Part shown: piece after piece, positions 11,401 to 60,198 of the stretch
Numbering within the stretch: the first letter of the stretch is position 1
How the letters are laid out: each line of letters opens with the position of its first letter
DNA from: an uncultured Candidatus Saccharibacteria bacterium
Lineage (GTDB): Bacteria; Patescibacteriota; Minisyncoccia; Phycocordibacterales; UBA12445
Direction: 5' to 3'
Length of the DNA: 64,000 nucleotides
Assembly (NCBI GenBank): GCA_964531375.1
Contig: CAZHDO010000002.1
Span: 21,469-85,468, forward strand
Translations under genes and position numbers: made by a program
Notes under the pieces: generated by a model
The model's input: the letters and a program-made list of their open reading frames with translations, nothing else
Databases searched by the model: none
What the model was told of the DNA's origin: nothing

Positions 11401-11432
11401 TTTTTAAAAAGACGGCGCAAGTCGTCTTTTTT
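11401..11432 (+). terminator. Rho-independent terminator.
   Basis: Stem aagacg/cgtctt with loop gcgcaagt, followed by a T6 run. A degenerate copy of this element recurs at 12643-12677. Confidence 0.7.
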
Positions 11433-11466
11433 GCTACCGATTCTGAAAAGGGCTATAATTACAACG

Positions 11467-12642
11467 ATGGACCCAAATAAACCACAAATAAAAAAAATTA
11501 TAAACACATCGAACATAGATAAGTTTTCCTTAACACCTACAAATAGGCCAGTACCTGTTTTTGAAAAAGAAAAAACTTTAGCAGAAAAATTTATGGATCT
11601 CCGAGGCTTTACTGGTAAAAACTTAAACGACATAAATTTTAGTAATTTTTCCACAGAAGATCTAGAAACTTGCAGTTTTGACACACAAACTGTTTGGCCA
11701 AATAAATTACCTGACAGTATCAAACCTAAAGATATTATAGAAAAAGGAAAAAATCCCGGACTTGGAATAAGAGAATTGCACGAGAGGGGTATTACTGGAA
11801 AGGGTGTAAATGTTGCCATCATTGACCAAAAACTTCTCACAGACCATGAGGAGTATAAAGACAATTTGGTATTTTACGAAGAAAATAAGAGTATGGAAAA
11901 CATAAGGCCAGAATTTCATGGAGTTGCAATGTCTAGTCTTCTTATTGGGAAAAATTGTGGTGTTGCGCCTGGTTCAAAACTTCATTATTTTGCAGCCGAA
12001 AACAGGCAAGGTGTAGGAAATTATTTAGAAAATTCCAGATTAGCTTTAGAAAAAATCATTAGCAAAAATGAAACCCTTCCAAAAAGAGAGAAGGTTAGGC
12101 TCGTAAGCATTTCAACTGCGTTACTTCAGAGACAAGATAAAGGTCAAAATTTGGAAGAAGAAAAGATTATGAAAGAGAGTATTATGAGGGCAGAAAATGC
12201 AGGAATAAATGTCATTTTTATGGGACATATAAAGGAAACGGACGGAGATTTTTATTTTGGCAAAGTAGGCAATAACACAGAGGACAAAAACGATACCGAT
12301 TGCTATGAAATCGACCTGTATTCAAAAGAAACAGGAGAAGAACCGACGACTGAACAAAAAGAACGAAACGTGTACATACCAACAGAATACAGAACAAAAG
12401 CATCTTTTACAGGAAAAAATGAGTATTGTTATAGCGGAAAGGGTGGAGGAAGTAGTGCTGCACCATACTTAGTTGGGGTTATGGCCCTAGCACTTCAGAT
12501 TAATCCCGATTTAAAGAAGAAAGAGATTCTTGAGAAAATTAAATTGACTAGTGTGACCAACAAAGCAGGCCTTAGGATAATTAATCCAAAAGGGTTAATT
12601 GAACTTCTTGAAGCAGAGAAAGGACAAAAGCAAACCAAGTAA
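11467..12642 (+). CDS. Subtilisin-like serine peptidase (S8 family), apparently cytoplasmic.
   Basis: Catalytic triad contexts VAIIDQ (Asp), HGVAMSS (His) and GGSSAAPY (Ser). No signal peptide. The ORF opens at 11431 inside the rplS terminator, so I place the start at the ATG of MDPNKPQ, which follows a TATAAT box. Confidence 0.7.
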   Translation: MDPNKPQIKKIINTSNIDKFSLTPTNRPVPVFEKEKTLAEKFMDLRGFTGKNLNDINFSNFSTEDLETCSFDTQTVWPNKLPDSIKPKDIIEKGKNPGLGIRELHERGITGKGVNVAIIDQKLLTDHEEYKDNLVFYEENKSMENIRPEFHGVAMSSLLIGKNCGVAPGSKLHYFAAENRQGVGNYLENSRLALEKIISKNETLPKREKVRLVSISTALLQRQDKGQNLEEEKIMKESIMRAENAGINVIFMGHIKETDGDFYFGKVGNNTEDKNDTDCYEIDLYSKETGEEPTTEQKERNVYIPTEYRTKASFTGKNEYCYSGKGGGSSAAPYLVGVMALALQINPDLKKKEILEKIKLTSVTNKAGLRIINPKGLIELLEAEKGQKQTK

Positions 12643-12787
12643 TTTTTAAAAAAGACGGCGCAAATCATCTTTTTAATTATCCAGATTGGTATTCGCTACA
12701 ACCCTGAGGTACAATATACAAATAAGACCGCTGGGAAGAGTAGAAATCAAACGGTCTATAGAAGTTATTAGCCTGTCTAGAAAACGC

Positions 12788-12836: not shown

Positions 12837-12920
12837 GCGCGGGTGGCGAAACTGGTAGACGCACTACCTTGAGGTGGTAGCGCCCTTACGGGTATGGAAG
12901 TTCAAATCTTCTCCCGCGCA
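12837..12920 (+). tRNA. tRNA-Leu (anticodon GAG).
   Basis: Cloverleaf folds by eye: acceptor gcgcggg/cccgcgc, anticodon loop uuGAGgu, long variable arm, T-loop gttcaaatc, discriminator A. CCA is not encoded. Confidence 0.85.
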
Positions 12921-13174
12921 CAAAATAACCATCCAGAAGCGAAAGCTTTTGGTGGTTTTATTTTATAGACGCCGGGAAGATTTGAAAGACGGAAGTGGGC
13001 CCCTTTCTGCAAAAAAGGGAGCTGAGTCGCGATAGCAAACGGCGAAGAACCTTCTTGAGAATTTTTCAGAGCAAGGTGAATGAAAAAGTCAAAGGTGTAC
13101 TGAACCTGTAAGGTTTGAGAGTACTTAGTGCTCGCAAATTGCGAAGCAATTGAGAACACTTAGTAACTCGTGAC

Positions 13175-13195
13175 CAAATCTTCTCCCGCGCACAA
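13175..13195 (+). repeat. 21-bp exact copy of the tRNA-Leu 3' end (att-like direct repeat).
   Basis: caaatcttctcccgcgcacaa is identical to 12903-12923. Confidence 0.8.
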
Positions 13196-13270
13196 CATAA
13201 AAACACATCAACTGATATTTTGATGTGTTTTTGCATTTTAACAAACATTTTACCGTGCTATTATAGAAAT

Positions 13271-18454: not shown

Positions 18455-20437
18455 ATGAACAAAGCTGATGAATTAAATGATAAACAAAAAGAGGCGGTGG
18501 CGCATAAAGATGGGCCACTTTTAATTGTAGCGGGGGCGGGGGCGGGAAAAACAAAAACAGTAACACACAGAATCGCTCATCTTATAAAATCAGGTATTGA
18601 ACCAAAGAGAATTCTTGCTGTTACATTCACAAACAAGGCCGCAAAAGAGATGAATGACAGAGTAAGACTTCTTATCCAAGCTAATCCTTTTTCAACTCCA
18701 GCAGGTTTTCCTTTTATAAGCACGTTTCACTCGCTTGGGGTTCACATTCTTAAAGAAAATGCTGAAGCGCTTGGGCGAAGCAAATATTTTTCGATCTTAG
18801 ATAGTGACGAATCGTTCTCTTTTGTAAAAAAAGCAGCAAGAGACATTGGACTTGACCCAAAAACGGTGAATATTAAGGGTATTCGCAATACGATATCTTC
18901 AAACAAGAACAAAATGATTTCGATTTCCGAATACCAAGACCAACCTTCAAATTTCTTCAAAGATACAACACTCAAGGTTTGGAGGAAATATGAAGACTTA
19001 CTTAAAGACAGCGAGGCCTACGACTTCGACGATCTTATCTTAAAAACAGTCCTGCTTTTTAAAAGCAATAAAGAAATTTTAAATTATTACCAGACACTCT
19101 GGCAGTATATTCACATTGACGAGTATCAGGACACAAATATTGTACAGTACGAGCTTTCACGGTTACTCGCTGAAAAACACATGAACATTTGTGTTGTAGG
19201 AGACAGCGACCAAGCCATTTACAGCTGGAGGTCTGCTGATTTCAGAAATATCCTTAATTTTGAAGATAATTTCCCTGGCGCAAAGACGGTTTTACTGGAA
19301 GAAAACTACCGCTCTACCAAGAACATACTCGAGCTGGCAAACAAGGTTATTCAAAAAAACAAGCTTCGAAAGGAGAAAAACCTTTTCACAATGAATAAAG
19401 ATGGCGAGAAAGCGGTTCTTTACGAAGCGATAGATGAGGGTGACGAAGCGAACTTTGTCATCAAAAAAGTTAAAGACCTTGTGAACACACAAAAGGTTGA
19501 TCCGTCTCAAATAGCATTACTTTATCGTGCGAACTTCCAATCACGTGTTCTTGAAGAACATTTCATTAGAGCAGGACTTCCTTACCAAATACTCGGAACA
19601 AGATTCTATGAACGCAAGGAAATTAAGGACATAATTGCTTTTATAAAATTTGCGCTTAATCAGAAAGACAAAGAGGCCTTTGTTCGAATAATAAACGTAC
19701 CACCAAGGGGAATAGGTAAGGTTACTCTTGAAAAGATTCTCGCAAACAAAGAATCCGAGATACCACAGGGCACACGGGACAAAATCGCCGAATTTAAAAG
19801 AAAAATAGACAAAATCAAAGACGTTCTTTTTAAGGAAAAACTTTCTGAAGCTATTAAATTCATAGTTAAAGAAACAGGAATGGACGTTGCTTTTATGGAA
19901 GAAGGCAAGGAAGAGGGGGTTGATAGAATGGAAAACATCCGAGAATTGGCCAACATTACGACCAAATACGATATACTTTCAAAAGAAGAAGCGCTCGATA
20001 AGTTCCTTACCGACACCTCACTTATGTCTGACCAAGACGCAATAATGGATAAACAAGCAAAAAACGGAGTGCGATTAATGACAGTTCACGCCTCAAAAGG
20101 CCTTGAATTCAAATACGTTTTCATTGTTGGCCTAGAACAAGACCTGTTTCCACACAAAAGCTTTGGTGATGAGGAAGTCAGCGACCCAGAAGAGGAGAGA
20201 CGCTTATTCTATGTTGCGATCACAAGAGCCCGAGAAAAACTATTCCTTTCTTATGCGGTATCAAGAATGATTTTTGGCACCAGGCAAATGAATATGCCAT
20301 CAGAATTTCTATCTGACATAGATGAATCTCTCGTAAATGTCGAACAAAATCAGTCATTTTCTTCCGGATACAATGGCGGCAAATCAAAAAGCTATTACAA
20401 AGAAGAAGACGCCATAATTTGGGACTGTTTGGGGTAA
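18455..20437 (+). CDS. pcrA: ATP-dependent DNA helicase, UvrD/PcrA/Rep family.
   Basis: Motif I AGAGAGKTKT, motif Ia TFTNKAAKEM, motif II DEYQDTN, and C-terminal VAITRAREKL. 660 aa. Confidence 0.85.
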   Translation: MNKADELNDKQKEAVAHKDGPLLIVAGAGAGKTKTVTHRIAHLIKSGIEPKRILAVTFTNKAAKEMNDRVRLLIQANPFSTPAGFPFISTFHSLGVHILKENAEALGRSKYFSILDSDESFSFVKKAARDIGLDPKTVNIKGIRNTISSNKNKMISISEYQDQPSNFFKDTTLKVWRKYEDLLKDSEAYDFDDLILKTVLLFKSNKEILNYYQTLWQYIHIDEYQDTNIVQYELSRLLAEKHMNICVVGDSDQAIYSWRSADFRNILNFEDNFPGAKTVLLEENYRSTKNILELANKVIQKNKLRKEKNLFTMNKDGEKAVLYEAIDEGDEANFVIKKVKDLVNTQKVDPSQIALLYRANFQSRVLEEHFIRAGLPYQILGTRFYERKEIKDIIAFIKFALNQKDKEAFVRIINVPPRGIGKVTLEKILANKESEIPQGTRDKIAEFKRKIDKIKDVLFKEKLSEAIKFIVKETGMDVAFMEEGKEEGVDRMENIRELANITTKYDILSKEEALDKFLTDTSLMSDQDAIMDKQAKNGVRLMTVHASKGLEFKYVFIVGLEQDLFPHKSFGDEEVSDPEEERRLFYVAITRAREKLFLSYAVSRMIFGTRQMNMPSEFLSDIDESLVNVEQNQSFSSGYNGGKSKSYYKEEDAIIWDCLG

Positions 20438-21660
20438 GTAGCAATATTAAATCATTAATTTTTATGAAATTAGAAAGTTTTGGAGAACAAAAAGGGAAAA
20501 TTAGGGAAATAGACACGAAGAATCCTGAATCTCAAAAAAATATTGAGGTTATGAAAATCCCAGAAATTGTTTTTGAAGAAGACTGCGGGGCGCAAATATT
20601 CTCTTTGATTAGAAAAGCAAGAGAGCCAGAGTGGGGCGAGACAAAAACGGAAATTGCAAGAGAAACCGTTGAATATTTTAAAGAAAATCCACTTGGAAAA
20701 GAACTTAAGGACTACCTTAATTACCTAAAAGAAAATGGTTTTGATGAAGAAACCCTATACAACATGGCTTTAATTTACAAACACGCAGAAAGACAAGAGG
20801 CGATGTTTGATATAGCCAAAAGATATAAACCACATATTAAAATTCCAAGTTCCGAATGGTCAAAAATAACTGAAAATTTTATAGATGAACTTGAAGAGTT
20901 TGATAAATCATTTTTCAGCTCAGATTTGGGTAAAAAATTCAAATCCCAAACGGAAAATGATATACAAGAAAGAATCAAGAAATCGGAGGAAACAAAAAAA
21001 TTAGTTCGGGATTTAATAGCGTTTTTCAAGCCAGATGCCAAAACAACCACAACAAAGAAATTAAATTATATGCCGACAGATTTTCTTTACAAAAAGAACT
21101 CCGGACGAAATTTTCGTTTTGGAAATGAACAGCTGATTACTTCACACATAGAAAATGTCGATAATCAAAAACATGAATTTTTACACGGGGTGATTAACCC
21201 TATCGTTGATAAATTAAAAGATGTTTTAACAATAGAGCAAAAAGAAAAAATATCAAAACTGGCGCGTGAGGGCTTAAAGAAAGATTATGGGGAAAATTAT
21301 TATAGTCTGCTTTGCGAAGAGCTTATTAGAACTTTTAATGATGTCGTTGAAAAAGAGGAAACACCTTATTTTGAAAATTTTAAGATAAAAGTTGAAAATC
21401 TTAAAGAAAATCAATTTCAAGAACACTTACAGAAAGATAACAAATTCAAAGAGGGGTGCAGAGGACTTAGTATAGAAAACCCTGAACAACTTAAAGAAAA
21501 AGTACAATTATTTTTTGATAATTTTGTAAAAAACCCTTTGCGTGAAATAATTTTTGAGATATATCAAAAATATTCTAGAGTTAAAGATGAACCAAGTATT
21601 AATTTCGAAAATTTCTTTTTAAGTAATTTTGTTGAATTTTTAAATAAAAAAATAAAATGA
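20419..21660 (+). CDS. Hypothetical protein with an HExxH motif.
   Basis: 413-aa ORF containing NQKHEFLHGV. The start could instead be MKLESFGEQ at 20464. It shares a GNxxITxxIxxxxN...HExxH block with the ORF at 22270. Confidence 0.45.
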   Translation: MGLFGVSSNIKSLIFMKLESFGEQKGKIREIDTKNPESQKNIEVMKIPEIVFEEDCGAQIFSLIRKAREPEWGETKTEIARETVEYFKENPLGKELKDYLNYLKENGFDEETLYNMALIYKHAERQEAMFDIAKRYKPHIKIPSSEWSKITENFIDELEEFDKSFFSSDLGKKFKSQTENDIQERIKKSEETKKLVRDLIAFFKPDAKTTTTKKLNYMPTDFLYKKNSGRNFRFGNEQLITSHIENVDNQKHEFLHGVINPIVDKLKDVLTIEQKEKISKLAREGLKKDYGENYYSLLCEELIRTFNDVVEKEETPYFENFKIKVENLKENQFQEHLQKDNKFKEGCRGLSIENPEQLKEKVQLFFDNFVKNPLREIIFEIYQKYSRVKDEPSINFENFFLSNFVEFLNKKIK

Positions 21661-22094
21661 GAATGCTTTTTGTTTGTAAGGGAAATATGTTTAGAAGCGT
21701 AATGGCAGAAGCCATCTATCGAAAAATAACAGGCAGTCGGGGTGTCATTTCGGCTGGCACGTATGTTGGGGCACCAGACGAACCAGAAGGCCGTATTTTG
21801 TCCGATTTATATGCCGAAGATTCCAAATTTTTTAAAATTATGGACGAGCATGGTATAAATATTCGAGACAAAAGAACAAAAAGACTAACACCTAAAATGG
21901 TAAACGATGCCGACATAGTAGTCTCGATGGCACAAGAGCCATTTATTCCCGATTTCCTTAAAAATAATAAAAAAGTAATCTGGTGGCAAATTGCCGACCC
22001 AGATAGCCATACCATAGATTTTCTTGAAGAAACTTATAGAAAACTAGAGACACTTATAACCGAACTCGTTAAAAAAAATAATCAAACCTCATAA
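21657..22094 (+). CDS. Low-molecular-weight protein tyrosine phosphatase / arsenate-reductase-like.
   Basis: P-loop VCKGNMFRS (CX5R(S/T)) at the N-terminus and a DP motif later. Confidence 0.8.
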   Translation: MRMLFVCKGNMFRSVMAEAIYRKITGSRGVISAGTYVGAPDEPEGRILSDLYAEDSKFFKIMDEHGINIRDKRTKRLTPKMVNDADIVVSMAQEPFIPDFLKNNKKVIWWQIADPDSHTIDFLEETYRKLETLITELVKKNNQTS

Positions 22095-22269
22095 ACCATG
22101 CTAAAATTGAATTTTTAATGTATTTTTAAAATAAGATGAAAAATAATCCAGAAAATCCAAATATAAAACAAAACAGTAAAGAAGAGGAAAAACTAGAATA
22201 TGACAAGAAGTTTTGGATTAAAATGTCTTTGGTTTTGAGTTTGCTTTTTCCTGAAGTAAGCGGGGGGGG

Positions 22270-23298
22270 GTGCGAGAAATGCTCATAAAAACAGAAAAGG
22301 TTAAGATTATAAAATCGCACGAGGCCACAAAAGAAGACCGAGAAAGCAACAAGTACTCAAAAGAAATACAAAAAGAAGCGGTCTTGGAAATATTTATGAG
22401 AGGGAGGTCTTATGGCAAAACTCGTGCGGAAAACATAAAACTCAACCCAGAAAATAACCCGAAAAAAGAACCAAAAATTGAAGTTCCTGATGATTTCATA
22501 ATCCCAGGGGCCAAAGAAATGATCACCTCGGCCATAAACAAGCTTCCACAGACAATAACGACAAACATAAGAAGTATTACCTGTACTAATGAAAAAAGAG
22601 AACTGCCAGATGATCTAGGTATAAAAGGTTTTGAGCTTGCACATGCAGATTTTAACGGAAATATTTTCATTACAGGCGGCATTTCTCAAGAAAAAAACTT
22701 AGTGCTAGATAAAATAATTTTTCATGAATGCGGGCACTTTTGTTTCGAATACAACGCGCTACTATCCGACGAAGAAAAATTTAGCCTTATTAATAAAATA
22801 AAAAATAGGGTTATTTCGAGCGATAATTTTTGGAGCAATTATGTGTCACAGATTAAAAATAAAGATAAAAAAACAGAACTTTTAAGAAAAACAGTGGAAT
22901 ATTTTTCCGAAATTATTTCCGCATACTATATGAATAACCCATCGTTGCCTGAAGAAGATGTCGCCATACTAAAAGAATTTCGAATTATCACAGAAGAAAC
23001 TGAAAACTACAAAAAAGCAATAATAAAATTAGCTTCTATTGAAACATATGTTCGTATTTATTATCAAAAGTTCAACCCACAAAACCGTGACTCTATTACC
23101 AAAATACTAAAAGCAAGACGACTAGAGGTTGATAATATTAAAGAAGAAGCTACTTCTCTTTTTAATAAAAAAGAAGAAGATTACGCTGGCGACCTGAACA
23201 AACTAGAAATGGAAATTATAAAAACAATAAATGACGTCAATGTGGAGATTGAAAAAGAAATAGAAAAAGACAAAAACCAACACAAAAAAGTTAAATAA
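22270..23298 (+). CDS. Hypothetical protein with a zincin-like HExxH motif.
   Basis: IIFHECGHFCFEY. The C-terminal half is K/E-rich and helical. 342 aa. Confidence 0.45.
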   Translation: MREMLIKTEKVKIIKSHEATKEDRESNKYSKEIQKEAVLEIFMRGRSYGKTRAENIKLNPENNPKKEPKIEVPDDFIIPGAKEMITSAINKLPQTITTNIRSITCTNEKRELPDDLGIKGFELAHADFNGNIFITGGISQEKNLVLDKIIFHECGHFCFEYNALLSDEEKFSLINKIKNRVISSDNFWSNYVSQIKNKDKKTELLRKTVEYFSEIISAYYMNNPSLPEEDVAILKEFRIITEETENYKKAIIKLASIETYVRIYYQKFNPQNRDSITKILKARRLEVDNIKEEATSLFNKKEEDYAGDLNKLEMEIIKTINDVNVEIEKEIEKDKNQHKKVK

Positions 23299-23299
23299 A

Positions 23300-23761
23300 A
23301 TGAAAAAAATAATTATTGTATTTGATAAATTTTTATTTCTGCGCATGTTTGTTTTTTTAAATGATGGAATGTTTTATGCCGAATATTACTCTGTAGGGAC
23401 CGAGAGAAAAGAAGATGAAAATAAAATAGAAAATTTAAATAGATTAGTGACCGAAAATAAAGTAAAGATAATCGGATTAGAACCAGAGATAGGGGACAAG
23501 AAATCCGTTTTTTACACAAAAGACGTTAATTTAACTGACCCAAATTTCATAAATGCAGTTGAACAATATCTAACCGACGGAGAGTTATTTTCCAAGATAA
23601 TTCCTGAAGAAACAAAAAAGATGTTTCTTTTCCTAGAAGAAAGAAAGCTTACCTTGGAAATTAAAAAGGAACTATATTCAAAAATACTAAATTCCAACGA
23701 CGATTTCATATTAAATATGTCCAATCTAGTCAACAAGGCCGAAGAGACATTTAAAAAATAA
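23300..23761 (+). CDS. Hypothetical protein.
   Basis: 153-aa ORF lying 1 nt after the upstream stop. Confidence 0.4.
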   Translation: MKKIIIVFDKFLFLRMFVFLNDGMFYAEYYSVGTERKEDENKIENLNRLVTENKVKIIGLEPEIGDKKSVFYTKDVNLTDPNFINAVEQYLTDGELFSKIIPEETKKMFLFLEERKLTLEIKKELYSKILNSNDDFILNMSNLVNKAEETFKK

Positions 23762-23837
23762 AGAAACGGGTTGTGTTTATTGTATGATGTGATAATATGA
23801 TGACGTAATATATAAATTACTAAATAATACAAAAAAA

Positions 23838-24062
23838 ATGACCACAATATCTGTTCCCTTACCACAAGACTTGATTGCATATATAGAATCCGTAATCGAC
23901 ATGAACGAGGCAGAGACAAAAGCTGAAGTAGTAAGAAAAGCACTAAGAAAAATGAGGGAAGACGACTTAGTCGACAATCTACTAAAGGCAGAGCAGGAAT
24001 ATAAAAATGGGAAAACTCTAAAAGGTGACCTCCGAAAGCTACTAGGAGAAAATAATAAATAA
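23838..24062 (+). CDS. Ribbon-helix-helix antitoxin (ParD/CopG-like).
   Basis: MTTISVPLPQDLIAYIES...AEVVRKALRKM is the RHH antitoxin pattern. It lies immediately upstream of a RelE/ParE-like toxin gene. Confidence 0.6.
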   Translation: MTTISVPLPQDLIAYIESVIDMNEAETKAEVVRKALRKMREDDLVDNLLKAEQEYKNGKTLKGDLRKLLGENNK

Positions 24063-24323
24063 ATGAAAATCCATTATTCCTCTACTTTTTTCAAGAAAGT
24101 AAAAAGACTGGAAATTGACCTCCAAGAGGAAGTTTTAGAAAAAATAGAACTCATAAAAAACGGGAATAGCGCCAAACGTCTTAAAATCCACAAACTCCAC
24201 GGGCGACTCGGTAAAAGCTATGGTCTTTCAATAAATTATAAAATTAGGGCCATTTTTTACCACGAAAAGAATGGGGATATTGTATTTTTTGACGTAGGCG
24301 AACATGATCAAGTCTATAGATAA
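24063..24323 (+). CDS. RelE/ParE-family toxin.
   Basis: 86 aa. The C-terminus YKIRAIFYHEKNGDIVFFDVGEHDQVY matches the RelE/ParE core. Its ATG abuts the antitoxin stop. Confidence 0.65.
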   Translation: MKIHYSSTFFKKVKRLEIDLQEEVLEKIELIKNGNSAKRLKIHKLHGRLGKSYGLSINYKIRAIFYHEKNGDIVFFDVGEHDQVYR

Positions 24324-24335
24324 CACTATATATAA

Positions 24336-25130
24336 ATGGACGAATATTTTTCACCAAAAAAATCGCTGGGGCAAAACTTTCTGACGTCAGAAGGTGCACT
24401 CCAAAAAATAGTTGAGACTGCGGAAATCAATGAAAATGATGTGATTTTGGAAGTCGGACCAGGGAAGGGCGCTTTGACACTTGAACTTCTACATAAAAAA
24501 CCCAAAAAAATACTAGCAATAGAAAAGGACAAGGAACTTACACCACTTCTAGAAGAAAATTTTAAAAAATATACAGACGAAGGAATTTTAGACATACAAA
24601 ATGGTGATATTCTCGATTTTGAACCAGAAGATAACCCAACCTTAAAAGATGGCTATAAAATAGTCGCAAATATTCCTTATTACATTACCGGTCATTTTAT
24701 TAGAAAATTTCTAACAACACAGAATAAACCCTCAAAGATGGTGATTCTTGTGCAAAAAGAAGTAGCAGAAAGAATTGTAGCAAGAGACGACAAAGAAAGC
24801 CTGCTTTCTATAAGCGTGAAGGTGTTTGGCGAGCCAAAATACATAACGACCGTTAAAAAGGGCTCATTCTTCCCAGTGCCGAATGTTGATTCTGCAGTCC
24901 TACTTATAGATAAAATCAAAAGAGACTCCGATATTAAAGATGGTGATAGATTTTTTCAAATACTACACGCGGGGTTTGCCCAAAAAAGAAAAATGCTATT
25001 AGGAAACCTAGCCGACACGTTCGGAGGAAGGGAGCAGGCCGAGCAAAAACTTAACATTTGTAAAATAGACACAAAGAAAAGAGCAGAGGATATAAAACTA
25101 GAAGACTGGCTCTGTTTAGCGAATAAATAA
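24336..25130 (+). CDS. rsmA: 16S rRNA (adenine1518/1519-N6)-dimethyltransferase.
   Basis: KKSLGQNFL at the N-terminus, SAM site ILEVGPGKGALT, and NIPYYIT. Confidence 0.85.
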   Translation: MDEYFSPKKSLGQNFLTSEGALQKIVETAEINENDVILEVGPGKGALTLELLHKKPKKILAIEKDKELTPLLEENFKKYTDEGILDIQNGDILDFEPEDNPTLKDGYKIVANIPYYITGHFIRKFLTTQNKPSKMVILVQKEVAERIVARDDKESLLSISVKVFGEPKYITTVKKGSFFPVPNVDSAVLLIDKIKRDSDIKDGDRFFQILHAGFAQKRKMLLGNLADTFGGREQAEQKLNICKIDTKKRAEDIKLEDWLCLANK

Positions 25131-25151
25131 CAACCCGACTTGTCTATATTT

Positions 25152-25177
25152 TTACCTTTTGGAAACGACGTTTCCAA
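25152..25177. repeat. 26-bp perfect palindrome cttttggaaacgacgtttccaaaagg (copy 1).
   Basis: Identical to 25710-25735. The two copies bracket the hicBA module. Confidence 0.8.
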
Positions 25178-25224
25178 AAGGCAAAATGGTTTATTTTTTA
25201 TTTATTTTGTGGTAAATTTAACAT

Positions 25225-25443
25225 GTGAAAAAGTTAAATCTTAAAAACATAATCTGGAAAGAAGGCAAACACTACGTTGGTCAGTGTCTTAACGTTGATG
25301 TTTCAAGCTTTGGGAATACAAAAAAGGAGGCACTAAAAAATCTTGACGAGGCAATTGAGCTTTATTTTGAGGGTACTGATAAAATTGATTTCACCAAAGT
25401 TGTCCGTCCGGAAATTATTGCACTCTCAGTAAAATATGCCTAA
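25225..25443 (+). CDS. hicB: HicB-family antitoxin.
   Basis: KHYVGQCLNVDVSSFGNTKKEALKNLDEAIELYFE matches the HicB N-terminal domain. GTG start. It overlaps hicA by 8 nt. Confidence 0.6.
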   Translation: MKKLNLKNIIWKEGKHYVGQCLNVDVSSFGNTKKEALKNLDEAIELYFEGTDKIDFTKVVRPEIIALSVKYA

Positions 25444-25648
25444 ATTTTACTCTTCTAACCACATCATTAAAACCCTTGAAAGAAAGTGTTTTTGCTTTAT
25501 TTCACAAAAAGGTAGCCACGCTAAATATTATTCTGAAGCCTTTAAAAATACCGTTATTATTCCGACCGAAAGAAAACAAATTCCATTTGGAACATTTAAA
25601 TCGATACTTAGACAATCTGGACTTAAAAAAGAGGACTTCGAAAAATAG
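25436..25648 (+). CDS. hicA: HicA-family mRNA interferase toxin.
   Basis: IIKTLERKCFCFISQKGSHAKYY...TVIIPTERKQIPFGTFKSILRQSGL matches the HicA pattern (GSH...VPxH...GTLRSILKQAGL). Confidence 0.7.
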   Translation: MPKFYSSNHIIKTLERKCFCFISQKGSHAKYYSEAFKNTVIIPTERKQIPFGTFKSILRQSGLKKEDFEK

Positions 25649-25709
25649 CACGCGGGAATAACTCAACCGAAAAGTAACATTTTACCTTAAAATTATCCAC
25701 AGTTTTGGC

Positions 25710-25735
25710 TTTTGGAAACGACGTTTCCAAAAGGG
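25710..25735. repeat. 26-bp perfect palindrome (copy 2).
   Basis: Identical to 25152-25177. Confidence 0.8.
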
Positions 25736-25832
25736 GATTAAGTTATCCACATCTTTATCCGGAATTCGTACTTGCTTTTCAAAAGAAGTGTTATAATAAA
25801 TTGGGGATTATTGTTTCCCATTTTATAATATT

Positions 25833-26582
25833 ATGGATATTCTTCCTGGCGAAAATTTCTTTAAACGAGTGCTTATTTTAACGCTAATAACAGGCGGTTA
25901 CTTTTATTTTTCTTCTGGCACAAGAGCTAATATTACAAATACAGAAAATGGTACCATTCAAAAAATTGGAAATGCTGTGGTTTTTTCAAGAAACAAAGAT
26001 TCTGGTTCACCAAAGATGAACGAAATTAATGATTTGAATATCGTTAGCCAAAACCCAGAAACAAGCACCGCCAGTGTTTCAAACGCAATAAACCCAAACA
26101 ACCTTACTCAACTAAAGCTTTCTGATTTAAATATTGATAATAACAACACCACAAAAGACCTACAAACATACGCCAAAAACCTTTCTCTTGCTTTGAAGCC
26201 TTATTCTACTGATGGAATTCCAAACGAACTTGACCTTATGCTTCAGGTCGCAAAAAACCTGGACAATACCGCACTAAATAAAATAAGACTTTTATCACAA
26301 TTCCACGCTTTAATAGCCAAAGATCTCTCAAATATACAAGTTCCAAGCAGTGCTGGATGGAGACATTTAAATCTCACAAACAATTGCCTTAAAATTTCCT
26401 ATTTAGATAGCCAAATCGCAAACAATATCAACGACCCAAAGAAATTACCCTTATTATTAAACGATTTTCAAACTGAGACAAAATTATTCATTTCTACGAT
26501 AAACGACCTTAATCAGTTTTTCCTAGATAAAAAAATTATCTTTAACGACAACAACGCAATTTCAATAAAGCTAAAATTTTAA
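25833..26582 (+). CDS. Bitopic membrane protein, first gene of the T4SS-like cluster (VirB8-like topology).
   Basis: A single N-terminal TM segment (VLILTLITGGYFYFSS) followed by an extracytoplasmic domain of about 220 aa. The topology alone suggests VirB8. Confidence 0.4.
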   Translation: MDILPGENFFKRVLILTLITGGYFYFSSGTRANITNTENGTIQKIGNAVVFSRNKDSGSPKMNEINDLNIVSQNPETSTASVSNAINPNNLTQLKLSDLNIDNNNTTKDLQTYAKNLSLALKPYSTDGIPNELDLMLQVAKNLDNTALNKIRLLSQFHALIAKDLSNIQVPSSAGWRHLNLTNNCLKISYLDSQIANNINDPKKLPLLLNDFQTETKLFISTINDLNQFFLDKKIIFNDNNAISIKLKF

Positions 26583-32573: not shown

Positions 32574-33185
32574 ATGGAACATACAAAAGAACAAGTAAAT
32601 AATATTTTTCAATCACTACCGGTTGAAATAAAAACTGCAATTTTATCAGTTGAAACCTTTGATTCTATTGTAGAAATATCTCAAAAACACCAACTACACC
32701 TAGACCAACAATCTACACTTGGTCAGGAAACAGGGAATATTTTACTTGGAATCTCTGACCCACTAGATTTCGTGTCAACAATAAGTACAAAACTAGGAAT
32801 TGATAAAAACATAGCCAATCAAATTGTTGGCGAAATAAATGAGAAAATATTTAGTAAAGTTAAAGATTCACTAAGAAATATTCACAACGCTGCAAATAAG
32901 AAAGAGGTTCCAGTAAGTCCTGTGCCAGTTGCACCAAACCTTATTAAAAATACCGAAACACAAAATTTGAATGTTCCACAAAAAACATTAGATGTATTAC
33001 AAGGGAAGGGGGTTGTCACAGAACAAAAACACGACACAAGTATTCTCGGATTTTCAGTAGAGAAAATTGCCGACAAACCAACTAACATTCTAAGCCAGAA
33101 AATGAACGGAAGCTTCAATATGCCAAAAAACGAAACAGAAAATGGAACACAGAAAATAACAGATCCGTACTTAGAAAGTATATAG
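32574..33185 (+). CDS. Hypothetical protein.
   Basis: 203-aa ORF in the cluster, followed by an intergenic repeat element. Confidence 0.45.
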   Translation: MEHTKEQVNNIFQSLPVEIKTAILSVETFDSIVEISQKHQLHLDQQSTLGQETGNILLGISDPLDFVSTISTKLGIDKNIANQIVGEINEKIFSKVKDSLRNIHNAANKKEVPVSPVPVAPNLIKNTETQNLNVPQKTLDVLQGKGVVTEQKHDTSILGFSVEKIADKPTNILSQKMNGSFNMPKNETENGTQKITDPYLESI

Positions 33186-33388
33186 TATTGCGTATAAGTA
33201 TTTAGCATAAACACGAAAAGTATTAAGTATGGGTATATAGTGTTTAGTATAAATACACAAAGAGAAAAAAGACAAAATAAATAAAAAAAATGAGATATAA
33301 AATGCCAAATACCAGATACTACATACTTAATACAAAATACATAATACTGAAATTGCATATTTTTATTAATAATTCTTATTAATAAAAA
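33186..33388. repeat. Intergenic inverted-repeat element of the GTATTTAGTAT family.
   Basis: Forward units (gtataagtatttagcat, agtattaagtatgggtatatagtgtttagtata) on the left face reverse-complement units (atactacatacttaatacaaaatacataatact) on the right. Confidence 0.7.
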
Positions 33389-33390
33389 AA

Positions 33391-33819
33391 ATGCAATTTC
33401 AAGTTCCACAATTTATTGAAATAGAGGATAAAATAATAGGGCCTTTTACATTTTTCCAATTTATGTATCTTCTTGGTGGTTTTGGAGGTGGATATGCCTT
33501 ATATAGACTACTAGAACCATATTTAGGTAGTTTGGTTTATGTCGTAGTGGTACCTTTGATTATCTTTTCACTTGCATTGGCATTCTATAAAGTAAACGAA
33601 AGGCCATTTATAAATATCGTTGAGTCTTGGATAAAGTTTAAATTTAGCGGGAAAAGATATTTGTGGAAAAAGGAAGAAATAGTTATTAAAAAACAGGCTG
33701 ACGATATCGATATTTTAATCAGAAATGCCGGCACACAAAAAGCAGTCGTCCCAAAACTTACATCAGGAAGATTAAAAGACATTGCTTGGAGTTTAGATAT
33801 ACAGGAGAAGATAAAGTAA
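33391..33819 (+). CDS. PrgI/VirB3-like T4SS membrane protein.
   Basis: N-terminal motif VPQFIEIEDKIIGPFTFFQFMYLLGG, followed by two TM helices. This is the layout of the PrgI/TcpE/VirB3-like family. Confidence 0.5.
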   Translation: MQFQVPQFIEIEDKIIGPFTFFQFMYLLGGFGGGYALYRLLEPYLGSLVYVVVVPLIIFSLALAFYKVNERPFINIVESWIKFKFSGKRYLWKKEEIVIKKQADDIDILIRNAGTQKAVVPKLTSGRLKDIAWSLDIQEKIK

Positions 33820-33952
33820 GTATTGGGTATAAAGTATTTAGTATTTAGTATAAAGAGAAAAAGTATTAAGTATCGGGTATATAGTATTTAGTATAAATAC
33901 AAAACAAGACAAAATAAACAAAAAAATTATGTATCGTGTATAATATATTAGA
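33820..33952. repeat. Intergenic GTATTTAGTAT-family repeat element.
   Basis: gtattgggtataaagtatttagtatttagtataaag...gtattaagtatcgggtatatagtatttagtataaatac. Confidence 0.7.
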
Positions 33953-33954
33953 GC

Positions 33955-34329
33955 ATGGAAAAAATAAAGAGTTTTACTGATTTAAATACATGGAAAGAAG
34001 GGCATTCATTAGCTTTATCTGTTTATGAAATAACAAAATCATTTCCAAAAGAAGAAATATTTAGCCTTACCAACCAAATGAGACGATGCGCAGTGTCAAT
34101 TACATCAAATATAGCCGAAGGATTTAGTAGAAGGTCAAAAAAAGAAAAAATACAATTTTATTCAATATCACTGGGATCTATAACAGAACTACAAAATCAG
34201 TTAATCATATCAAAAGACATAAAATACTTGATGCAGGAAAAATTTACCACAATGTTTGACCAAGCCACGAAGACTCAAAGAATGATATATGGATTAATAA
34301 AAAGTGCAAAAGATGTTGTTTATACATAA
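33955..34329 (+). CDS. Four-helix-bundle protein (TIGR02436 / 23S rRNA intervening-sequence protein, Avd-like fold).
   Basis: 124 aa. TDLNTWKEGHSLALSVYEITKSFPKEE...MRRCAVSITSNIAEGFSRRSKKEKIQFYSISLGSITELQNQL matches this family closely. Confidence 0.7.
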   Translation: MEKIKSFTDLNTWKEGHSLALSVYEITKSFPKEEIFSLTNQMRRCAVSITSNIAEGFSRRSKKEKIQFYSISLGSITELQNQLIISKDIKYLMQEKFTTMFDQATKTQRMIYGLIKSAKDVVYT

Positions 34330-34361
34330 TACGTAATACAAAATACTAAATACATATAAAT

Positions 34362-35015: not shown

Positions 35016-35140
35016 GAAGGGGGTGGAGGGGAAGTATTAAGTATTTGGTATTATGTATTGTGTATATTAAATTTTATACAAAACACGAAACACCAAATAC
35101 TAGATACTAAATACAAAATACTTAATACTTTGTAAAATAT
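35016..35140. repeat. GTATTTAGTAT-family inverted-repeat element splitting VirB4.
   Basis: TAG-gaagggggtggagggg-aagtattaagtatttggtattatgtattgtgtat ... aaacaccaaatactagatactaaatacaaaatacttaatact. Confidence 0.7.
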
Positions 35141-36943
35141 ATGAGCTTTTTTGGAAAACAAAACGACGAAAATAAAATAGAGACAATTCTACCGCAGGAT
35201 ATATATTCTGGTGGGGTTTTGGAGCTCAAGGATATTATTTCTCCTTCAGCGCTAGAAATTGGATCAAATAGCATTAAACTAGGGGAGAAGATAGCGAGGA
35301 CGTTTTTCGTCATTTCTTATCCTAGGTTTTTGTCTGAAAACTGGTTTTCTCCAATAATAAATCTCGACAAAATATTCGATGTTTCTCTTGTAATACACCC
35401 GATAGACACATCCACAGTCCTTCATCAACTTCAAAAGAAACTAGCTGAAGTACAAAGCCAAATACACTCCAACGAAACAAAAGGAATGGTCCGAGATCCT
35501 ATGCTCGACACAGCTTTTCAAGACATAGAGACATTAAGAGACCAATTATCCCAAGCCAGAGAGAAAATTTTTGACGTCGGACTTTATCTCACAATGTACG
35601 CCAACAGTGAAGAGGAACTAAATAAGGTTGAAGCTGAAATTAAAACGATAATGGAATCAAGGCTGGTGTATATAAAACCTGCTCTTTTTCAACAAGAAGA
35701 AGGGTTTAATAGTATTATGCCAATCGCATCAGACGCGCTAGCCGTGAACACTAAACTTAACTCGGCTCCGCTTTCTAGTATTTTCCCCTTTATCTCTTTT
35801 GACCTTACTTCAAACAAAGGAATTTTATATGGAATAAATAGACACAACTCCAGCCTTATAATCTTCGACAGATTTTCACTTGAAAACTACAACTCTGTTA
35901 TCTTTGCCAAAGCTGGCTCTGGTAAATCTTATTTTACAAAACTGGAAATTTTAAGGTCTTTAATGTTCGATGTAGATGTAATTGTAATTGACCCTGAAAA
36001 AGAATATGAATTCCTAGCAGAAGCTGTCGGGGGTAGGTATTTTAATATTTCCCTCTCGTCAGAACACCACATAAATCCTTTTGACCTTCCACCAGTAAGA
36101 GAAGATGAATCTCCATCTGATGTTTTGAGATCTCACATTATTAGTCTCGTGGGGTTGTTTAGAATAATGCTTGGAGGAATGTCGCCAGAAGAAAGCTCTG
36201 TTATGGATAATGCGATAATGGAGACATACGCCCTTAAAGATATAACAGCGGATAATGATTTCACAAACGCAAATCCTCCGCTTATGTCTGACCTTGAACT
36301 CGTGCTCGCGGGTATGGACGGGGGGGCATCGCTTGCACAAAGGCTTCTTAAATACACACAAGGAACTTGGTCCGGATTCTTAAACAGACCAACAAACATC
36401 GACATCAATAAAAAATTCATAGTATTTTCTGTTCGCGATATGGAAGACGAACTCAAGCCTATCGCAATGCACATAATAATGAATAATATTTGGGGCTCAA
36501 TCAGAAGAGACCTGAAAAAGAGAATGCTTATTATCGACGAGGCGTGGTGGATGATGAAATCGCCAGATACCGCTTCATTCTTATACAGCCTCGCAAAAAG
36601 AGGTAGAAAATATTATCTCGGTGTGACAACAATTACACAAGACGTCGCCGATTTTTTAAACTCGCCATACGGTATTCCTATCATTACGAACTCTTCAATG
36701 CAGATAATATTAAAACAATCTCCAGCCTCGATAGGCCTTGTTCAAAAAACGTTCAACCTGACCGACGAAGAGAAGTTTTTGCTTTTAGAGTCGAATGTGG
36801 GGGAGGGAATCTTCTTTGCTGGCTTGAAGCACGTTGCAATTAAAGTAATCGCTTCATACACCGAAGATCAAATAATAACATCAGATCCATCACAGATATT
36901 AGCGATTAAAAAAGCAAAAGAAGATTTAAGAGCGACGGAGTAG
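35141..36943 (+). CDS. VirB4/TrbE/CagE-family T4SS ATPase (C-terminal body).
   Basis: Walker A FAKAGSGKSYF, Walker B MLIIDEAWWMM, middle region ARTFFVISYPRFLSENWFSPII, and C-terminal RGRKYYLGVTTITQDVADF. 600 aa. Confidence 0.75.
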   Translation: MSFFGKQNDENKIETILPQDIYSGGVLELKDIISPSALEIGSNSIKLGEKIARTFFVISYPRFLSENWFSPIINLDKIFDVSLVIHPIDTSTVLHQLQKKLAEVQSQIHSNETKGMVRDPMLDTAFQDIETLRDQLSQAREKIFDVGLYLTMYANSEEELNKVEAEIKTIMESRLVYIKPALFQQEEGFNSIMPIASDALAVNTKLNSAPLSSIFPFISFDLTSNKGILYGINRHNSSLIIFDRFSLENYNSVIFAKAGSGKSYFTKLEILRSLMFDVDVIVIDPEKEYEFLAEAVGGRYFNISLSSEHHINPFDLPPVREDESPSDVLRSHIISLVGLFRIMLGGMSPEESSVMDNAIMETYALKDITADNDFTNANPPLMSDLELVLAGMDGGASLAQRLLKYTQGTWSGFLNRPTNIDINKKFIVFSVRDMEDELKPIAMHIIMNNIWGSIRRDLKKRMLIIDEAWWMMKSPDTASFLYSLAKRGRKYYLGVTTITQDVADFLNSPYGIPIITNSSMQIILKQSPASIGLVQKTFNLTDEEKFLLLESNVGEGIFFAGLKHVAIKVIASYTEDQIITSDPSQILAIKKAKEDLRATE

Positions 36944-37009
36944 GAGGGGTAAGTATTTAGTATTAGGTATTTGGTATTTAGTATAAAAATACACAATACA
37001 AATAAAAAA
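36944..37009. repeat. GTATTTAGTAT-family repeat element.
   Basis: TAG-gaggggtaagtatttagtattaggtatttggtatttagtataaaaatacacaatac. Confidence 0.7.
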
Positions 37010-37609
37010 ATGCCAGAAGAAAATACGCCGACATTAGACAAAGCAGACTGGTTAAGCCTTTATCTCGTGGCCATTTTTTTTGATGTTATGGGCTGGTTGA
37101 TGGCTTTTGTGGATATTTTTTTGTTAGGGTGGGGAGGGTTCTTTTTAAATCTTTCTGGGGGGGCCACTTTCTCACTTTGGTTAGCAATCTGGAAAGACAA
37201 ATTCGGTGGTTTTGGTAAAATATCAACGACGTTTATAATTGTTTTTCTTTTAGAAGCAACCCCTATTGTGGGCGATGTTTTACCACTTTGGACTGGCATG
37301 ATTTACAGGTTACAAAAAAATCACGAAAAAAACCTAATGGGTACAATAACAGGCACCATCAAAGACAAAGCAACAAAAAAGAAAGAGCAGGACGAGAGAA
37401 GAAAAAAAGAGGAGGACGAAAAAAAGAAAAAAACAGAAGAAGATGGAAGAAGGGAAGAAGAAAGAAGAGAACAACAAAGACAAAAGGAAATGGATGAGAA
37501 GAAAGCAGAAAGACTGGAAAATGGAAAAAGTAGCCAAAATGAAAAGGAGGTAGGTGAAAATAAAAATGAGGGTCTGGAAGAAGCCCAACCTGCACAACAA
37601 GTAGAATAA
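37010..37609 (+). CDS. Small polytopic membrane protein with a Lys/Glu/Arg-rich cytoplasmic tail.
   Basis: ATG at 37010 (MPEENTPTL). Three or four TM helices, then a KKEQDERRKKEEDEKKKK tail. The ORF-track start at 36971 is a TTG inside the repeat element, and I reject it. Confidence 0.4.
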   Translation: MPEENTPTLDKADWLSLYLVAIFFDVMGWLMAFVDIFLLGWGGFFLNLSGGATFSLWLAIWKDKFGGFGKISTTFIIVFLLEATPIVGDVLPLWTGMIYRLQKNHEKNLMGTITGTIKDKATKKKEQDERRKKEEDEKKKKTEEDGRREEERREQQRQKEMDEKKAERLENGKSSQNEKEVGENKNEGLEEAQPAQQVE

Positions 37610-40720: not shown

Positions 40721-40905
40721 GAGGGGTGGTGTTTAGTATTTAGTATTATGTATATAGTATTTAGTATAAGCACTAACACAAACAATAAACCACTTTTTTA
40801 AGTAGTTGTAAGTTTAGTAGCATACTAAATACAAAATACTAGATACAATATACTTTTTGTTTTATTTATACTAAATACAAAATACAATATACATAATACC
40901 AAATA
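40721..40905. repeat. Large GTATTTAGTAT-family inverted-repeat element (between convergent genes).
   Basis: TAG-gaggggtggtgtttagtatttagtattatgtatatagtatttagtata ... atactaaatacaaaatactagatac ... atactaaatacaaaatacaatatacataataccaaatactaaatact. Confidence 0.75.
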
Positions 40906-41622
40906 CTAAATACTCTTCGCCTTTTGTTTTACGTATAACTCGTGGGCGATACCGAAGAGGTTACTTGTTATCCAGAACACAGAGACGGCTGCATTTAGTT
41001 TTGAGGCGATATAAACAATAAAAACGGGCAAGAAATACTTAACCTGCCAATTCATACTTTGTGCAAAATCATCGGCAAAAGAAGACTCTTTTCCTTGGCT
41101 CTTTGGAAGGTCAGGAACGGAGAGTTTGGTTTGAAAAAACTGTGTAATCCCAACCAAAACCGCTAAATAAAAATTGCTTGTAGCCATTTCTATAAATCCC
41201 AAAAACATAGTGTTTACTGTGGATGGAATTATATTAAATGAGAATATTACAGAAGAGGTAAGGTCTATTTTTTCGCTAAAAATATAATAAAGAGCTATAA
41301 ACATCGGCAATTGAATAAATAAAAGCAAAATAGTAGAAAATGGATTTATTCCATGTTCCTTATATAGATTCATTGTTCTGATGGCCTGCTCTTCTTGATT
41401 ATCCTTAAATTTTTCTTTTATGTTCTTTATATGTGGCTCAATTTCTTTCATTTTCTTCTGAGTCTCAAGTGATTTGTGAGAAAGGGGGAGTATTACGATC
41501 TTTGAAAATATCGTTAAAAGAACAATTGCGATACCAATATCGTTGTTTGGGACAATTGCACTCAAAAATATAATAAGATTATATAGGGGGTAATAAAAGA
41601 TGTTAAAAATAAATGAAAACAT
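40906..41622 (-). CDS. yidC: Membrane protein insertase YidC (short form).
   Basis: GIAIVLLTIFSKIVILPLS...QKKMKEIEPHIKNIKEKFKDNQEEQAIRTMNLYKEHGINPFS is the YidC/Oxa1 core. Confidence 0.8.
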   Translation of the reverse strand: MFSFIFNIFYYPLYNLIIFLSAIVPNNDIGIAIVLLTIFSKIVILPLSHKSLETQKKMKEIEPHIKNIKEKFKDNQEEQAIRTMNLYKEHGINPFSTILLLFIQLPMFIALYYIFSEKIDLTSSVIFSFNIIPSTVNTMFLGFIEMATSNFYLAVLVGITQFFQTKLSVPDLPKSQGKESSFADDFAQSMNWQVKYFLPVFIVYIASKLNAAVSVFWITSNLFGIAHELYVKQKAKSI

Positions 41623-41730
41623 AAGTTATGTATTTAGTATTAAGTATTTAGTATACAGTATTGGGTATTTAGTATACAAGAAGTATTAAGTATTATGTAT
41701 ATAGTATACAAAATACTTAATACCCAATAC
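41623..41730. repeat. GTATTTAGTAT-family inverted-repeat element between rnpA and yidC.
   Basis: gtatttagtattaagtatttagtatacagtattgggtatttagtatac ... atacttaatacccaatacctaatacttattactaaatacc. Confidence 0.75.
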
Positions 41731-60180: not shown

Positions 60181-60198
60181 TATCTAGTATTTTGTATC

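Follow-up and report, generated by a model that had tools for sequence, protein, structure and literature searches.

Which process leaves two identical palindromes on either side of a small toxin-antitoxin (TA) gene pair? This question is raised by a hicBA module on a stretch of 64,000 nucleotides from an uncultured Candidatus Saccharibacteria bacterium (contig CAZHDO010000002.1, positions 21,469 to 85,468 of the forward strand; this whole stretch is referred to here as the window), where it lies between rsmA and an operon resembling those for type IV secretion systems (T4SSs). The answer that we favor, and to which we assign a probability of about 0.6, is that the palindromes are the scar of an insertion of hicBA at a resident hairpin, and neither the ends of a transposon nor a regulatory switch. 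If this is true, the locus provides a clean natural example of a TA islet that entered a streamlined genome of the candidate phyla radiation (CPR) by landing at a hairpin in a variable spacer next to a conserved operon, with the flanking hairpins keeping the transcription units insulated.

Two Identical Palindromes Flank hicBA

The 26-mer CTTTTGGAAACGACGTTTCCAAAAGG is found in two exact copies on the + strand of the window, at 25156-25181 (copy 1, PAL-L) and 25709-25734 (copy 2, PAL-R), both recorded as features without strand. A third copy is not present in the window when up to three mismatches are allowed, and 0 of 100 dinucleotide shuffles matched the 26-mer. Copy 1 lies 25 nt past the stop codon of rsmA (also ksgA; 24336-25130, + strand), the conserved gene upstream of the insertion site, which encodes the 16S rRNA dimethyladenosine transferase (PF00398, E=1.3e-51), and copy 2 lies 60 nt past the stop codon of hicA. 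The initial annotation of this DNA had correctly recognized two identical copies positioned after rsmA and after hicA, but its coordinates, 25152 and 25710, were off by 4 and 1 bases, and the unit that it gave as 558 bp measures 553 bp from start to start, with 527 bp in between. The hairpins described there as perfect palindromes with a 12-bp stem are real; the center is odd, however, as a 12-nt arm is followed by an unpaired A, a complementary 12-nt arm and an extra 3' G. Either copy alone folds into a stem of 11-12 bp with a 3-nt loop (-12.6 to -16.4 kcal/mol), and the hairpin of copy 1 can be extended to 17/18 pairs across 25150-25186, while that of copy 2 cannot be extended.

Both copies possess the identical central A and are consequently in the same orientation. 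Outside the 26-mer, no likeness in direct orientation was detected in flank alignments (left p=0.33, right p=0.99), and the edges of the repeat are therefore sharp at the palindrome borders. A 42-nt extended repeat returned by a repeat search (TTGTCTATA... vs TTATCCACA...) was rejected, since its extension is insignificant and it consists of the 26-mer and chance matches. The region is identical in three independent assemblies of the one species (ENA, NCBI GCA_037130235.1 and Logan), with zero differences and hence no polymorphism at the locus between them; the palindrome pair is therefore not an assembly artifact.

When the region 25131-25760 is folded as a whole, the minimum free energy and the centroid structures both pair copy 1 with copy 2, add CAAAAU/GUUUUG to the duplex and enclose hicBA. 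Taken at face value, the copies would form a stem of about 31 bp in rsmA read-through RNA that loops out the hicBA mRNA, a stalk for RNase III-type processing as is found around rRNAs. We regard such a stalk as very improbable: it is a thermodynamic prediction only, each copy would fold on itself first during transcription, and a promoter of hicBA itself is predicted downstream of copy 1. Moreover, the fold as a whole scores just z=-2.5 against 20 shuffles, and comparative support is nil, as the arrangement is present in no second genome.

The Junction Downstream of rsmA Is Variable and Carries a Hairpin in Two Related Genomes

Six related loci from Patescibacteria (L030, L031, L032, L069, L071 and L073), found via RsmA homologues of 61-68% identity and themselves 63-68% identical in RsmA, allowed us to view the site in the light of its evolutionary neighborhood. 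In each of them, rsmA is followed by an orthologue of the 249-aa gene that starts the downstream operon in the window (29-33% identity, full length). The empty sites that the initial annotation had envisaged do exist: four of the six (L030, L031, L069 and L071) have the order uvrD, rsmA, a spacer of 120-215 bp, a gene of about 255 aa and one of about 870 aa, without hicBA. The remaining two carry other cargo at the downstream junction, UDP-glucose dehydrogenase in L032 and a 505-aa gene in L073, and the latter genome also has a restriction-modification system between uvrD and rsmA. hicBA is absent from the rsmA junction in all six relatives and thus specific to the window species, in which uvrD and rsmA are moreover separated by six additional genes, a ParD/RelE-like pair among them. 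The different cargo in L032 and L073 therefore marks a variable hotspot at rsmA; both of its sides receive variable cargo, and hicBA is an acquired unit inserted at its downstream junction. As side observations, the cargo regions beside rsmA extend over 20419-24323 in the window, 1955-3736 in L073 and 5855-7258 in L032, and the six extra window genes comprise the ParD/RelE-like TA pair at 23838-24323 and a gene for a low-molecular-weight phosphatase.

Two of the empty sites carry prominent hairpins right after rsmA. In L030, the closest relative, the sequence ACTTGGACTCCGGGTTTCCAAG-CAAAAT-ACTTGGAAACCCGGAGTCCAAGT forms a perfect stem of 22 bp (-45.4 kcal/mol, z=-9.5), and in L071, CTTTTCTACTTAGGA-GCTTCGC-TTCCAAGTAGAAAAG folds with -21.5 kcal/mol (z=-6.5) and abuts a DnaA box. 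The window palindrome and these two hairpins have the motifs TTGGAAAC/GTTTCCAA and CTTTT...AAAAG in common, and alignments of the rsmA 3' region of the window to the two relatives gave p-values of 0.017 (L030) and 0.022 (L071). Related hairpins are hence resident at the site in genomes lacking hicBA, and homology of the window palindrome to them has moderate support from these alignments. Since they occupy empty sites, we consider that the palindrome probably belongs to the host site, as a stem-loop following rsmA in this lineage that was split or duplicated when hicBA arrived, and is not part of a mobile TA element. Units containing TTGGAAAC/GTTTCCAA were also seen as a tandem or inverted array on the metagenome contig L047 (810-900; ...GTTTCCGTTTCCAATTATTGGAAAC...TTGGAAACGGCGTTTCCAA...TTGGAAACAGGCTGTTTCCGTTTCCAATT).

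Beyond this site, the 19-nt core TTGGAAACGNCGTTTCCAA of the palindrome was scanned in 185,579 species genomes and the JGI metagenome collection. It was recovered at 26 genome and 36 metagenome loci, most of which fall within open reading frames (ORFs) of unrelated taxa; the CTTT/AAAG extension was found at 0 of the 62 loci, and hicBA was near none of them. A dispersed repeat or generic terminator was consequently dismissed, there being no further copy in the window and no core locus with the window's extension. The initial annotation had named a widespread terminator unrelated to hicBA as a finding that would speak against a special role of the palindrome; the exact palindrome is not such an element, although related hairpins do occur at the position without hicBA. 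We also inspected a variant 23-mer palindrome, ACTTGGAAACGNCGTTTCCAAGT, which is present in about a dozen CPR-like contigs (L003, L005, L013-L015, L018, L040, L043, L044, L051, L054, L061 and L064), never beside hicBA. Its hosts are Saccharibacteria, Zambryskibacteria and other CPR-like contigs, four of the loci belong to one metagenome-assembled genome (MAG), and the copies are either intergenic or located within ORFs. By a rough estimate, the number of matches is about that expected by chance among abundant hairpins; the consistent AC/GT extension exceeds chance. An uptake-sequence-like half-site was considered as well and rejected, as the half-site is not over-represented in the window.

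The occupied and empty sites bear directly on the notion that the palindromes are terminal inverted repeats of a non-autonomous transposon akin to miniature inverted-repeat or palindrome-associated transposable elements, with hicBA as its passenger. The copies, being palindromic, also make a 25-bp inverted repeat, their inner flanks are weakly complementary (CAAAA vs TTTTG and TGTGGTAAATTTAA vs TTAAAATTATCCACA; p=0.03, uncorrected), and elements of the IS200/IS605 type carry similar hairpins at both ends in direct orientation. Nevertheless, we find this notion, which the initial annotation had raised in the form of a miniature TA cassette, barely credible. There is no target-site duplication outside the copies, whose outer flanks are unrelated (p=0.33, 0.99 and 0.94); two of the four empty sites (L030 and L071) already harbor a hairpin of this family; and the unit has no other copy in the window. 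No transposase was seen among the 36 window proteins that were scanned. IS200/IS605-type and palindrome-associated elements have sub-terminal imperfect hairpins at both ends, come in several copies and rely on a TnpA (Y1) transposase supplied in cis or in trans; of these features, directly oriented hairpins are present here, and no Y1 transposase is among the scanned proteins. Furthermore, six hicBA loci have in common only a stretch that begins about 15 nt before hicB and stops with the hicA stop codon, and both borders fall well short of the palindromes. Near-identical hicBA copies elsewhere, which would have been a sign of recent mobility, were not found: the unit is single-copy, and the nearest homologues are just 69% (HicA) and 77% (HicB) identical. 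Of the recent mobilization proposed earlier, the acquisition of hicBA stands, and the perfect identity of the palindromes is consistent with a recent event; the machinery of a transposon or of att sites is unsupported.

Duplicated Flanks at Other hicBA Loci

If the palindrome pair is an insertion scar, other hicBA loci may reveal how such scars look. In the alignment of six such loci, the shared sequence starts about 15 nt upstream of hicB and extends no further than the stop codon of hicA. The Taylorbacteria MAG L076 carries hicBA within its atp operon, flanked by a direct duplication of about 115 nt (79-89% identical, z=30) that consists of the atpC upstream region and the first 22 codons of atpC. 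In L077, the module is flanked by a duplication of about 70-85 nt of the 3' region of the upstream gene (z=6.6), and the duplicated terminator hairpin shows a compensatory change (CCAAC/GTTGG vs CTAAC/GTTAG). At both loci, the duplicated target continues directly behind the stop codon of hicA. No flanking repeat was found at the hicBA loci L075, L078 and L079, so that highly significant flanking duplications are present at three of the six hicBA loci (window, L076 and L077) vs none of ten control insertions comprising other hotspot cargo and other small genes. Within the window itself, the rplS terminator is present in two copies that are 90% identical, one on each side of a subtilase-like gene (11431-12642, PF00082; z=13.6). 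Collectively, these data hint at a recurrent insertion-duplication process around hicBA and the subtilase gene.

Two observations may be added here. The copies of the intrinsic rplS terminator, TTTTTAAAAAGACGGCGCAAGTCGTCTTTTT, are located at 11401-11431 and 12644-12674, a layout of a gene between duplicated hairpins as at hicBA. In L076 (2671-2793), the duplicated 5' end of atpC, as read by eye, constitutes an intact ORF of 39 codons whose TGA stop overlaps the hicB ATG (ATGA), and it differs from the real atpC start by three synonymous codons and one K-to-R change; this ORF may be a translationally coupled leader placing hicBA under the expression of the atp operon.

Carried further, such duplications would suggest that the DUF7387-HicA cassettes of Patescibacteria are mobile cassettes without a recombinase that enter with variable-length direct duplications of their target (26 to about 115 nt), a generalization that we put forward as tentative and, on present evidence, rather unlikely. 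Circular intermediates could be integrated through short-homology (Campbell-type) recombination after DNA uptake, or replication could switch templates at hairpins; the target, once duplicated, would go on to serve as a terminator, ribosome-binding site or leader, and the window palindromes would be the freshest example of the process. Variable-length target duplications recurring around the hicBA family might be a new aspect, resting on three loci. Should they hold up, Patescibacteria would seem to have a way of gaining genes without a dedicated recombinase, with a bearing on the acquisition of defense genes by reduced genomes.

A dedicated recombinase encoded elsewhere could also be invoked, which would excise or integrate a 553-bp circle at att- or dif-like palindromes (attL/attR). 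The identical, directly oriented copies with their common central A and sharp borders speak for it, as do the role of the rsmA junction as a cargo hotspot in relatives and the duplicated target around other hicBA loci, which is what Campbell-type integration gives. One can even read a 9-7-9 or 10-5-10 layout into the palindrome, and such layouts are typical of the core sites of tyrosine recombinases. We nevertheless consider recombination at defined sites to be improbable. The 36 scanned window proteins include no recombinase, integrase or transposase, and none of them matches Phage_integrase. The other cargo of the hotspot (L032 and L073) lacks flanking repeats, the duplications at the other hicBA loci are locus-specific and range from about 26 to about 115 nt, a misfit for one defined site, and no second site with core plus flanks was found in the genome or metagenome collections. 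A dif site spans 28-31 bp, with two consensus arms of 11 bp around a spacer of 6-8 bp; the layout here is 12-1-12, the TTATG/ATAA arms are absent, and the locus is next to oriC and not at the terminus. Sites of the attC type are imperfect palindromes of 57-141 bp that feature R/L boxes as well as extrahelical bases and depend on IntI and attI; the 25-nt palindrome has no GTTRRRY/RYYYAAC core, no R/L boxes and no extrahelical bases. The attC- or dif-like sites listed in the initial annotation have, in short, the wrong architecture and the wrong location.

Origin and Possible Function of the Two Copies

Returning to the insertion scar as the preferred explanation, we envisage that hicB and hicA arrived as a compact cassette together with their own promoter of the leaderless type, and that the target was the variable spacer separating rsmA from the DnaA-box-controlled promoter of the T4SS-like operon. 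The cassette could have entered the apical loop of an older compound hairpin with self-complementary arms (route M1), or its insertion could have made a second copy of the 26-bp hairpin in the form of a long target duplication (route M2); either route would place one identical copy on each side of hicBA. Both arms of the L030 hairpin are nearly palindromic themselves, giving two units split by CAAAAT, and this is the very 6-mer that directly follows copy 1 in the window (25182-25187). The heptamer GCAAAAT at the end of copy 1 (25181-25187) likewise recurs in the loop of the L030 hairpin. Removal of 25188-25708 from the window leaves a two-unit sequence that is colinear with the L030 hairpin, GCAAAAT included (z=5.2, p=0.0006, as judged against a generous shuffle null in which each palindrome match is counted twice), and we take this as moderate support. 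Route M1 is favored by the two-unit structure of the L030 hairpin and the common GCAAAAT; route M2 is favored by the central A, whose identity in the two copies marks them as direct and not mirror copies, and by the analogous duplications at other loci. The data fit both routes.

The inserted interval does not hold hicBA only, as had been claimed initially, since it also includes a perfect DnaA box, TTATCCACA (25693-25701, + strand; box 1), 7 nt to the left of copy 2. A second perfect box (25743-25751, + strand; box 2), 8 nt to the other side of copy 2, is the orthologue of the single box conserved in all six relatives. The native box in L030 is embedded in exactly the same 14-mer, TTATCCACAGTTTT, as box 1. 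Because box 1 lies inside the insert in this context, the donor of hicBA may have been a relative carrying the module at the same locus.

As to function, each copy most likely acts as a local 3' stem-loop; one would end or stabilize the uvrD-rsmA transcript and the other that of hicBA, and the stem-loops would insulate the downstream DnaA-box promoter from read-through. This putative terminator or insulator role is inferred from position and structure. Of the options in the initial annotation, twin terminator hairpins come closest to this proposal: their positions after stop codons fit, whereas the missing U-tract sets them apart from the ordinary terminators of this genome, which are either of the A-run/stem/T-run type or hairpins of heptamer repeats.

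Both copies could also be seen as binding sites for a protein, an operator or activator, that co-regulates the promoters of hicBA and of the T4SS-like operon. hicB is preceded by a predicted extended -10 element, TGgTAAATT (25210-25218, + strand; read from the sequence and from the alignment of the six hicBA loci), and TG-GTAWAWT-like elements are located upstream of hicB at the five other loci. As this element ends 6 nt ahead of the GTG start codon, the hicBA transcript is probably leaderless. Relative to the predicted leaderless start, copy 1 is positioned at about -70 to -44, and copy 2 is found at about -95 to -70 of the downstream promoter, with perfect DnaA boxes symmetrically on either side. 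Identity in 26 of 26 positions exceeds what a hairpin requires, and a palindrome with an odd center suits a dimeric regulator. Still, a shared regulator strikes us as unlikely. Neither copy overlaps a -35 or -10 element; the hairpin of the relatives differs in sequence, so that structure and not sequence is conserved; and there is no other copy in the 64 kb, nor is the half-site over-represented. For HicB itself, named earlier as a protein that might bind an operator at this position, the case is hard to make: copy 1 is clear of the core promoter, and autoregulation through a palindromic operator is unlikely because the antitoxin, a 72-aa member of its family, has no helix-turn-helix (HTH) or ribbon-helix-helix (RHH) domain.

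Several points weigh against the insertion scar as outlined above, in addition to the generous null just mentioned. Homology to the hairpins of the relatives is only moderately significant, and the empty sites L031 and L069 have no comparable hairpin. Copy 2 sits between two DnaA boxes, while the boxes of L071 and L073 are about 21-22 bp apart with no hairpin between them; the two-box arrangement is not fully accounted for by one simple event. Neither stem is directly followed by a T-run, and a terminator scan called neither copy; copy 1 even has a T-run before and an A-run after its stem, the reverse of the usual terminators of the genome. With the scar as our preferred explanation nonetheless, the locus holds a lesson for annotators: a small cassette between identical palindromes is not necessarily a transposon or an integron, nor are such palindromes necessarily operators.

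The hicBA Module

The genes between the palindromes form an ordinary hicBA islet with a short HicB. hicB (25225-25443, + strand) has a GTG start codon and encodes a HicB-like antitoxin of 72 aa with a match to PF24113 (DUF7387; E=3.3e-7, above cut-off). The single domain spans residues 9-55, and no C-terminal HTH or RHH DNA-binding domain was found on the 72-aa protein, as only DUF7387 matches. Its homologues (n=1667) measure 71-72 aa in nearly all of the 120 listed, and both NCBI and JGI name them HicB-family proteins. A profile search of the PDB had a HicB-family antitoxin as its best, weak match (E=0.12), and the AlphaFold model (predicted local distance difference test score of 51) is too poor for judging the fold. 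hicA (25436-25648, + strand), the start of which overlaps hicB by 8 nt, codes for a toxin of 70 aa (PF07927; E=1.1e-10, above cut-off). Its G26-S27-H28 motif is invariant across 35 homologues and contains the conserved His that we take to be the catalytic residue. A search of viral contigs for hicBA loci returned two matches, both distant.

The Downstream Operon and Other Features of the Window

The right edge of the insertion site is formed by the first gene of the downstream operon (25833-26582, + strand; 249 aa). This operon encodes proteins of 249, 1050, 941 and 203 aa, followed by PrgI and a VirB4-like ATPase of the CD1110 family, and we hence call it T4SS-like. Its promoter and 5' untranslated region (25789-25820, + strand) comprise an extended -10 element (TGtTATAAT, 25789-25797), a small hairpin (25802-25820) and, at 25792-25808, the 17-mer TATAATAAATTGGGGAT. 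Five relatives (L030, L031, L032, L069 and L073) have this 17-mer without change, and L071 has it nearly so; the -10 element is conserved in all relatives as well, and in all seven genomes, the window and its six relatives, this motif is preceded 31-42 nt upstream by a DnaA box. Such conservation suggests that the T4SS-like operon may be under DnaA-dependent control.

The hicBA locus is about 17 kb away from dnaA. In the window, dnaA occupies 42651-44039 and dnaN 44271-45371, and the spacer at 44045-44215, with five sites resembling DnaA boxes and about 18 kb from hicBA, is the probable oriC.

Repeats of other kinds are also present. The 3' end of a tRNA-Leu(GAG) gene (12903-12928) is repeated in 25 of 26 positions at 13175-13200, 272 bp downstream, and the repeats enclose a G+C-richer segment of 246 bp with no ORF and no Rfam match; an integrative element that was later lost may have left this segment as an att-like scar, or the segment may correspond to an uncharacterized small RNA. 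At least nine intergenic regions between 33.2 and 60.2 kb contain long inverted repeats rich in A+T, which are built from arrays of the heptamer (GTATTTA)n and of its complement. Examples are found at 33178-33348, 33813-33899, 35034-35143, 36946-37015, 40729-40914, 41630-41759, 45642-45722, 48283-48338 and 60159-60212. The arms at 33813-33899 and 34328-34354 enclose a 124-aa ORF for a 23S-rRNA-intervening-sequence protein (33955-34329, PF05635). Analogous heptamer arrays with CCTAACA units exist in L076 at 2402-2432, 2637-2663 and 3223-3253, where an ORF of 70 aa, located between atpD and the inserted hicBA, is framed by inverted copies.

Comparison With Known Systems

In the literature that we searched for repeats around hicAB, duplicated terminators and insertion repeats in CPR genomes, we found no description of hicBA between duplicated hairpins; several known systems nevertheless resemble the locus in part. 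Integron cassettes are likewise compact ORF units closely followed by a hairpin repeat, with the preceding unit ending in a similar repeat, and chromosomal integrons include TA cassettes. The likeness extends to L076 and L077, where the hicA stop codon is the exact end of the cargo. Unlike in integrons, neither attC features nor IntI nor attI were seen here, and the repeats around hicBA copy the local target and not a shared site. Campbell-type integration, for instance at the 3' ends of tRNA genes, also leaves an insert flanked by a direct duplication of the target, and the repeated 3' end of tRNA-Leu in the window (12903-12928 and 13175-13200) is such a case. Unlike there, no integrase gene was found for hicBA among the scanned window proteins, and the duplications span 26-115 nt, one of them being exactly a palindrome.

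Several of the pdif modules of Acinetobacter carry toxin-antitoxin genes (PMC6449649; PMC13141974). As at our locus, a small module, often a TA pair, lies between two partly palindromic sites of about 26-28 bp and has no internal recombinase. However, pdif sites bind XerC/XerD in an 11-6-11 layout, follow the dif consensus, flank the modules in inverted XerC/XerD orientation and are numerous on each plasmid, whereas the hicBA locus is chromosomal, lies by oriC and features just two copies of a 12-1-12 hairpin without similarity to dif, of which a homologue is present at empty sites.

The palindromes of repetitive extragenic palindrome (REP) sequences and bacterial interspersed mosaic elements (BIMEs) serve as insertion targets, in some cases within the loop of the palindrome (PMC1525189). 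Here as there, a resident extragenic palindrome just downstream of a gene receives foreign DNA. REPs differ in that they are dispersed in hundreds of copies and receive insertion sequences with a transposase, while the hairpin studied here is locus-specific and its insert is a TA module without a transposase.

The module itself, finally, finds its counterpart in the canonical hicAB type II TA systems of E. coli, Yersinia, Pseudomonas and other bacteria (PMC11594946). Unlike in these systems, the antitoxin gene comes first, and its 72-aa product is devoid of the HTH or RHH domain that mediates operator binding in the studied cases. In common with them, it has the G-S-H motif of HicA, a HicB-like partner, overlapping genes and the character of a horizontally acquired islet.

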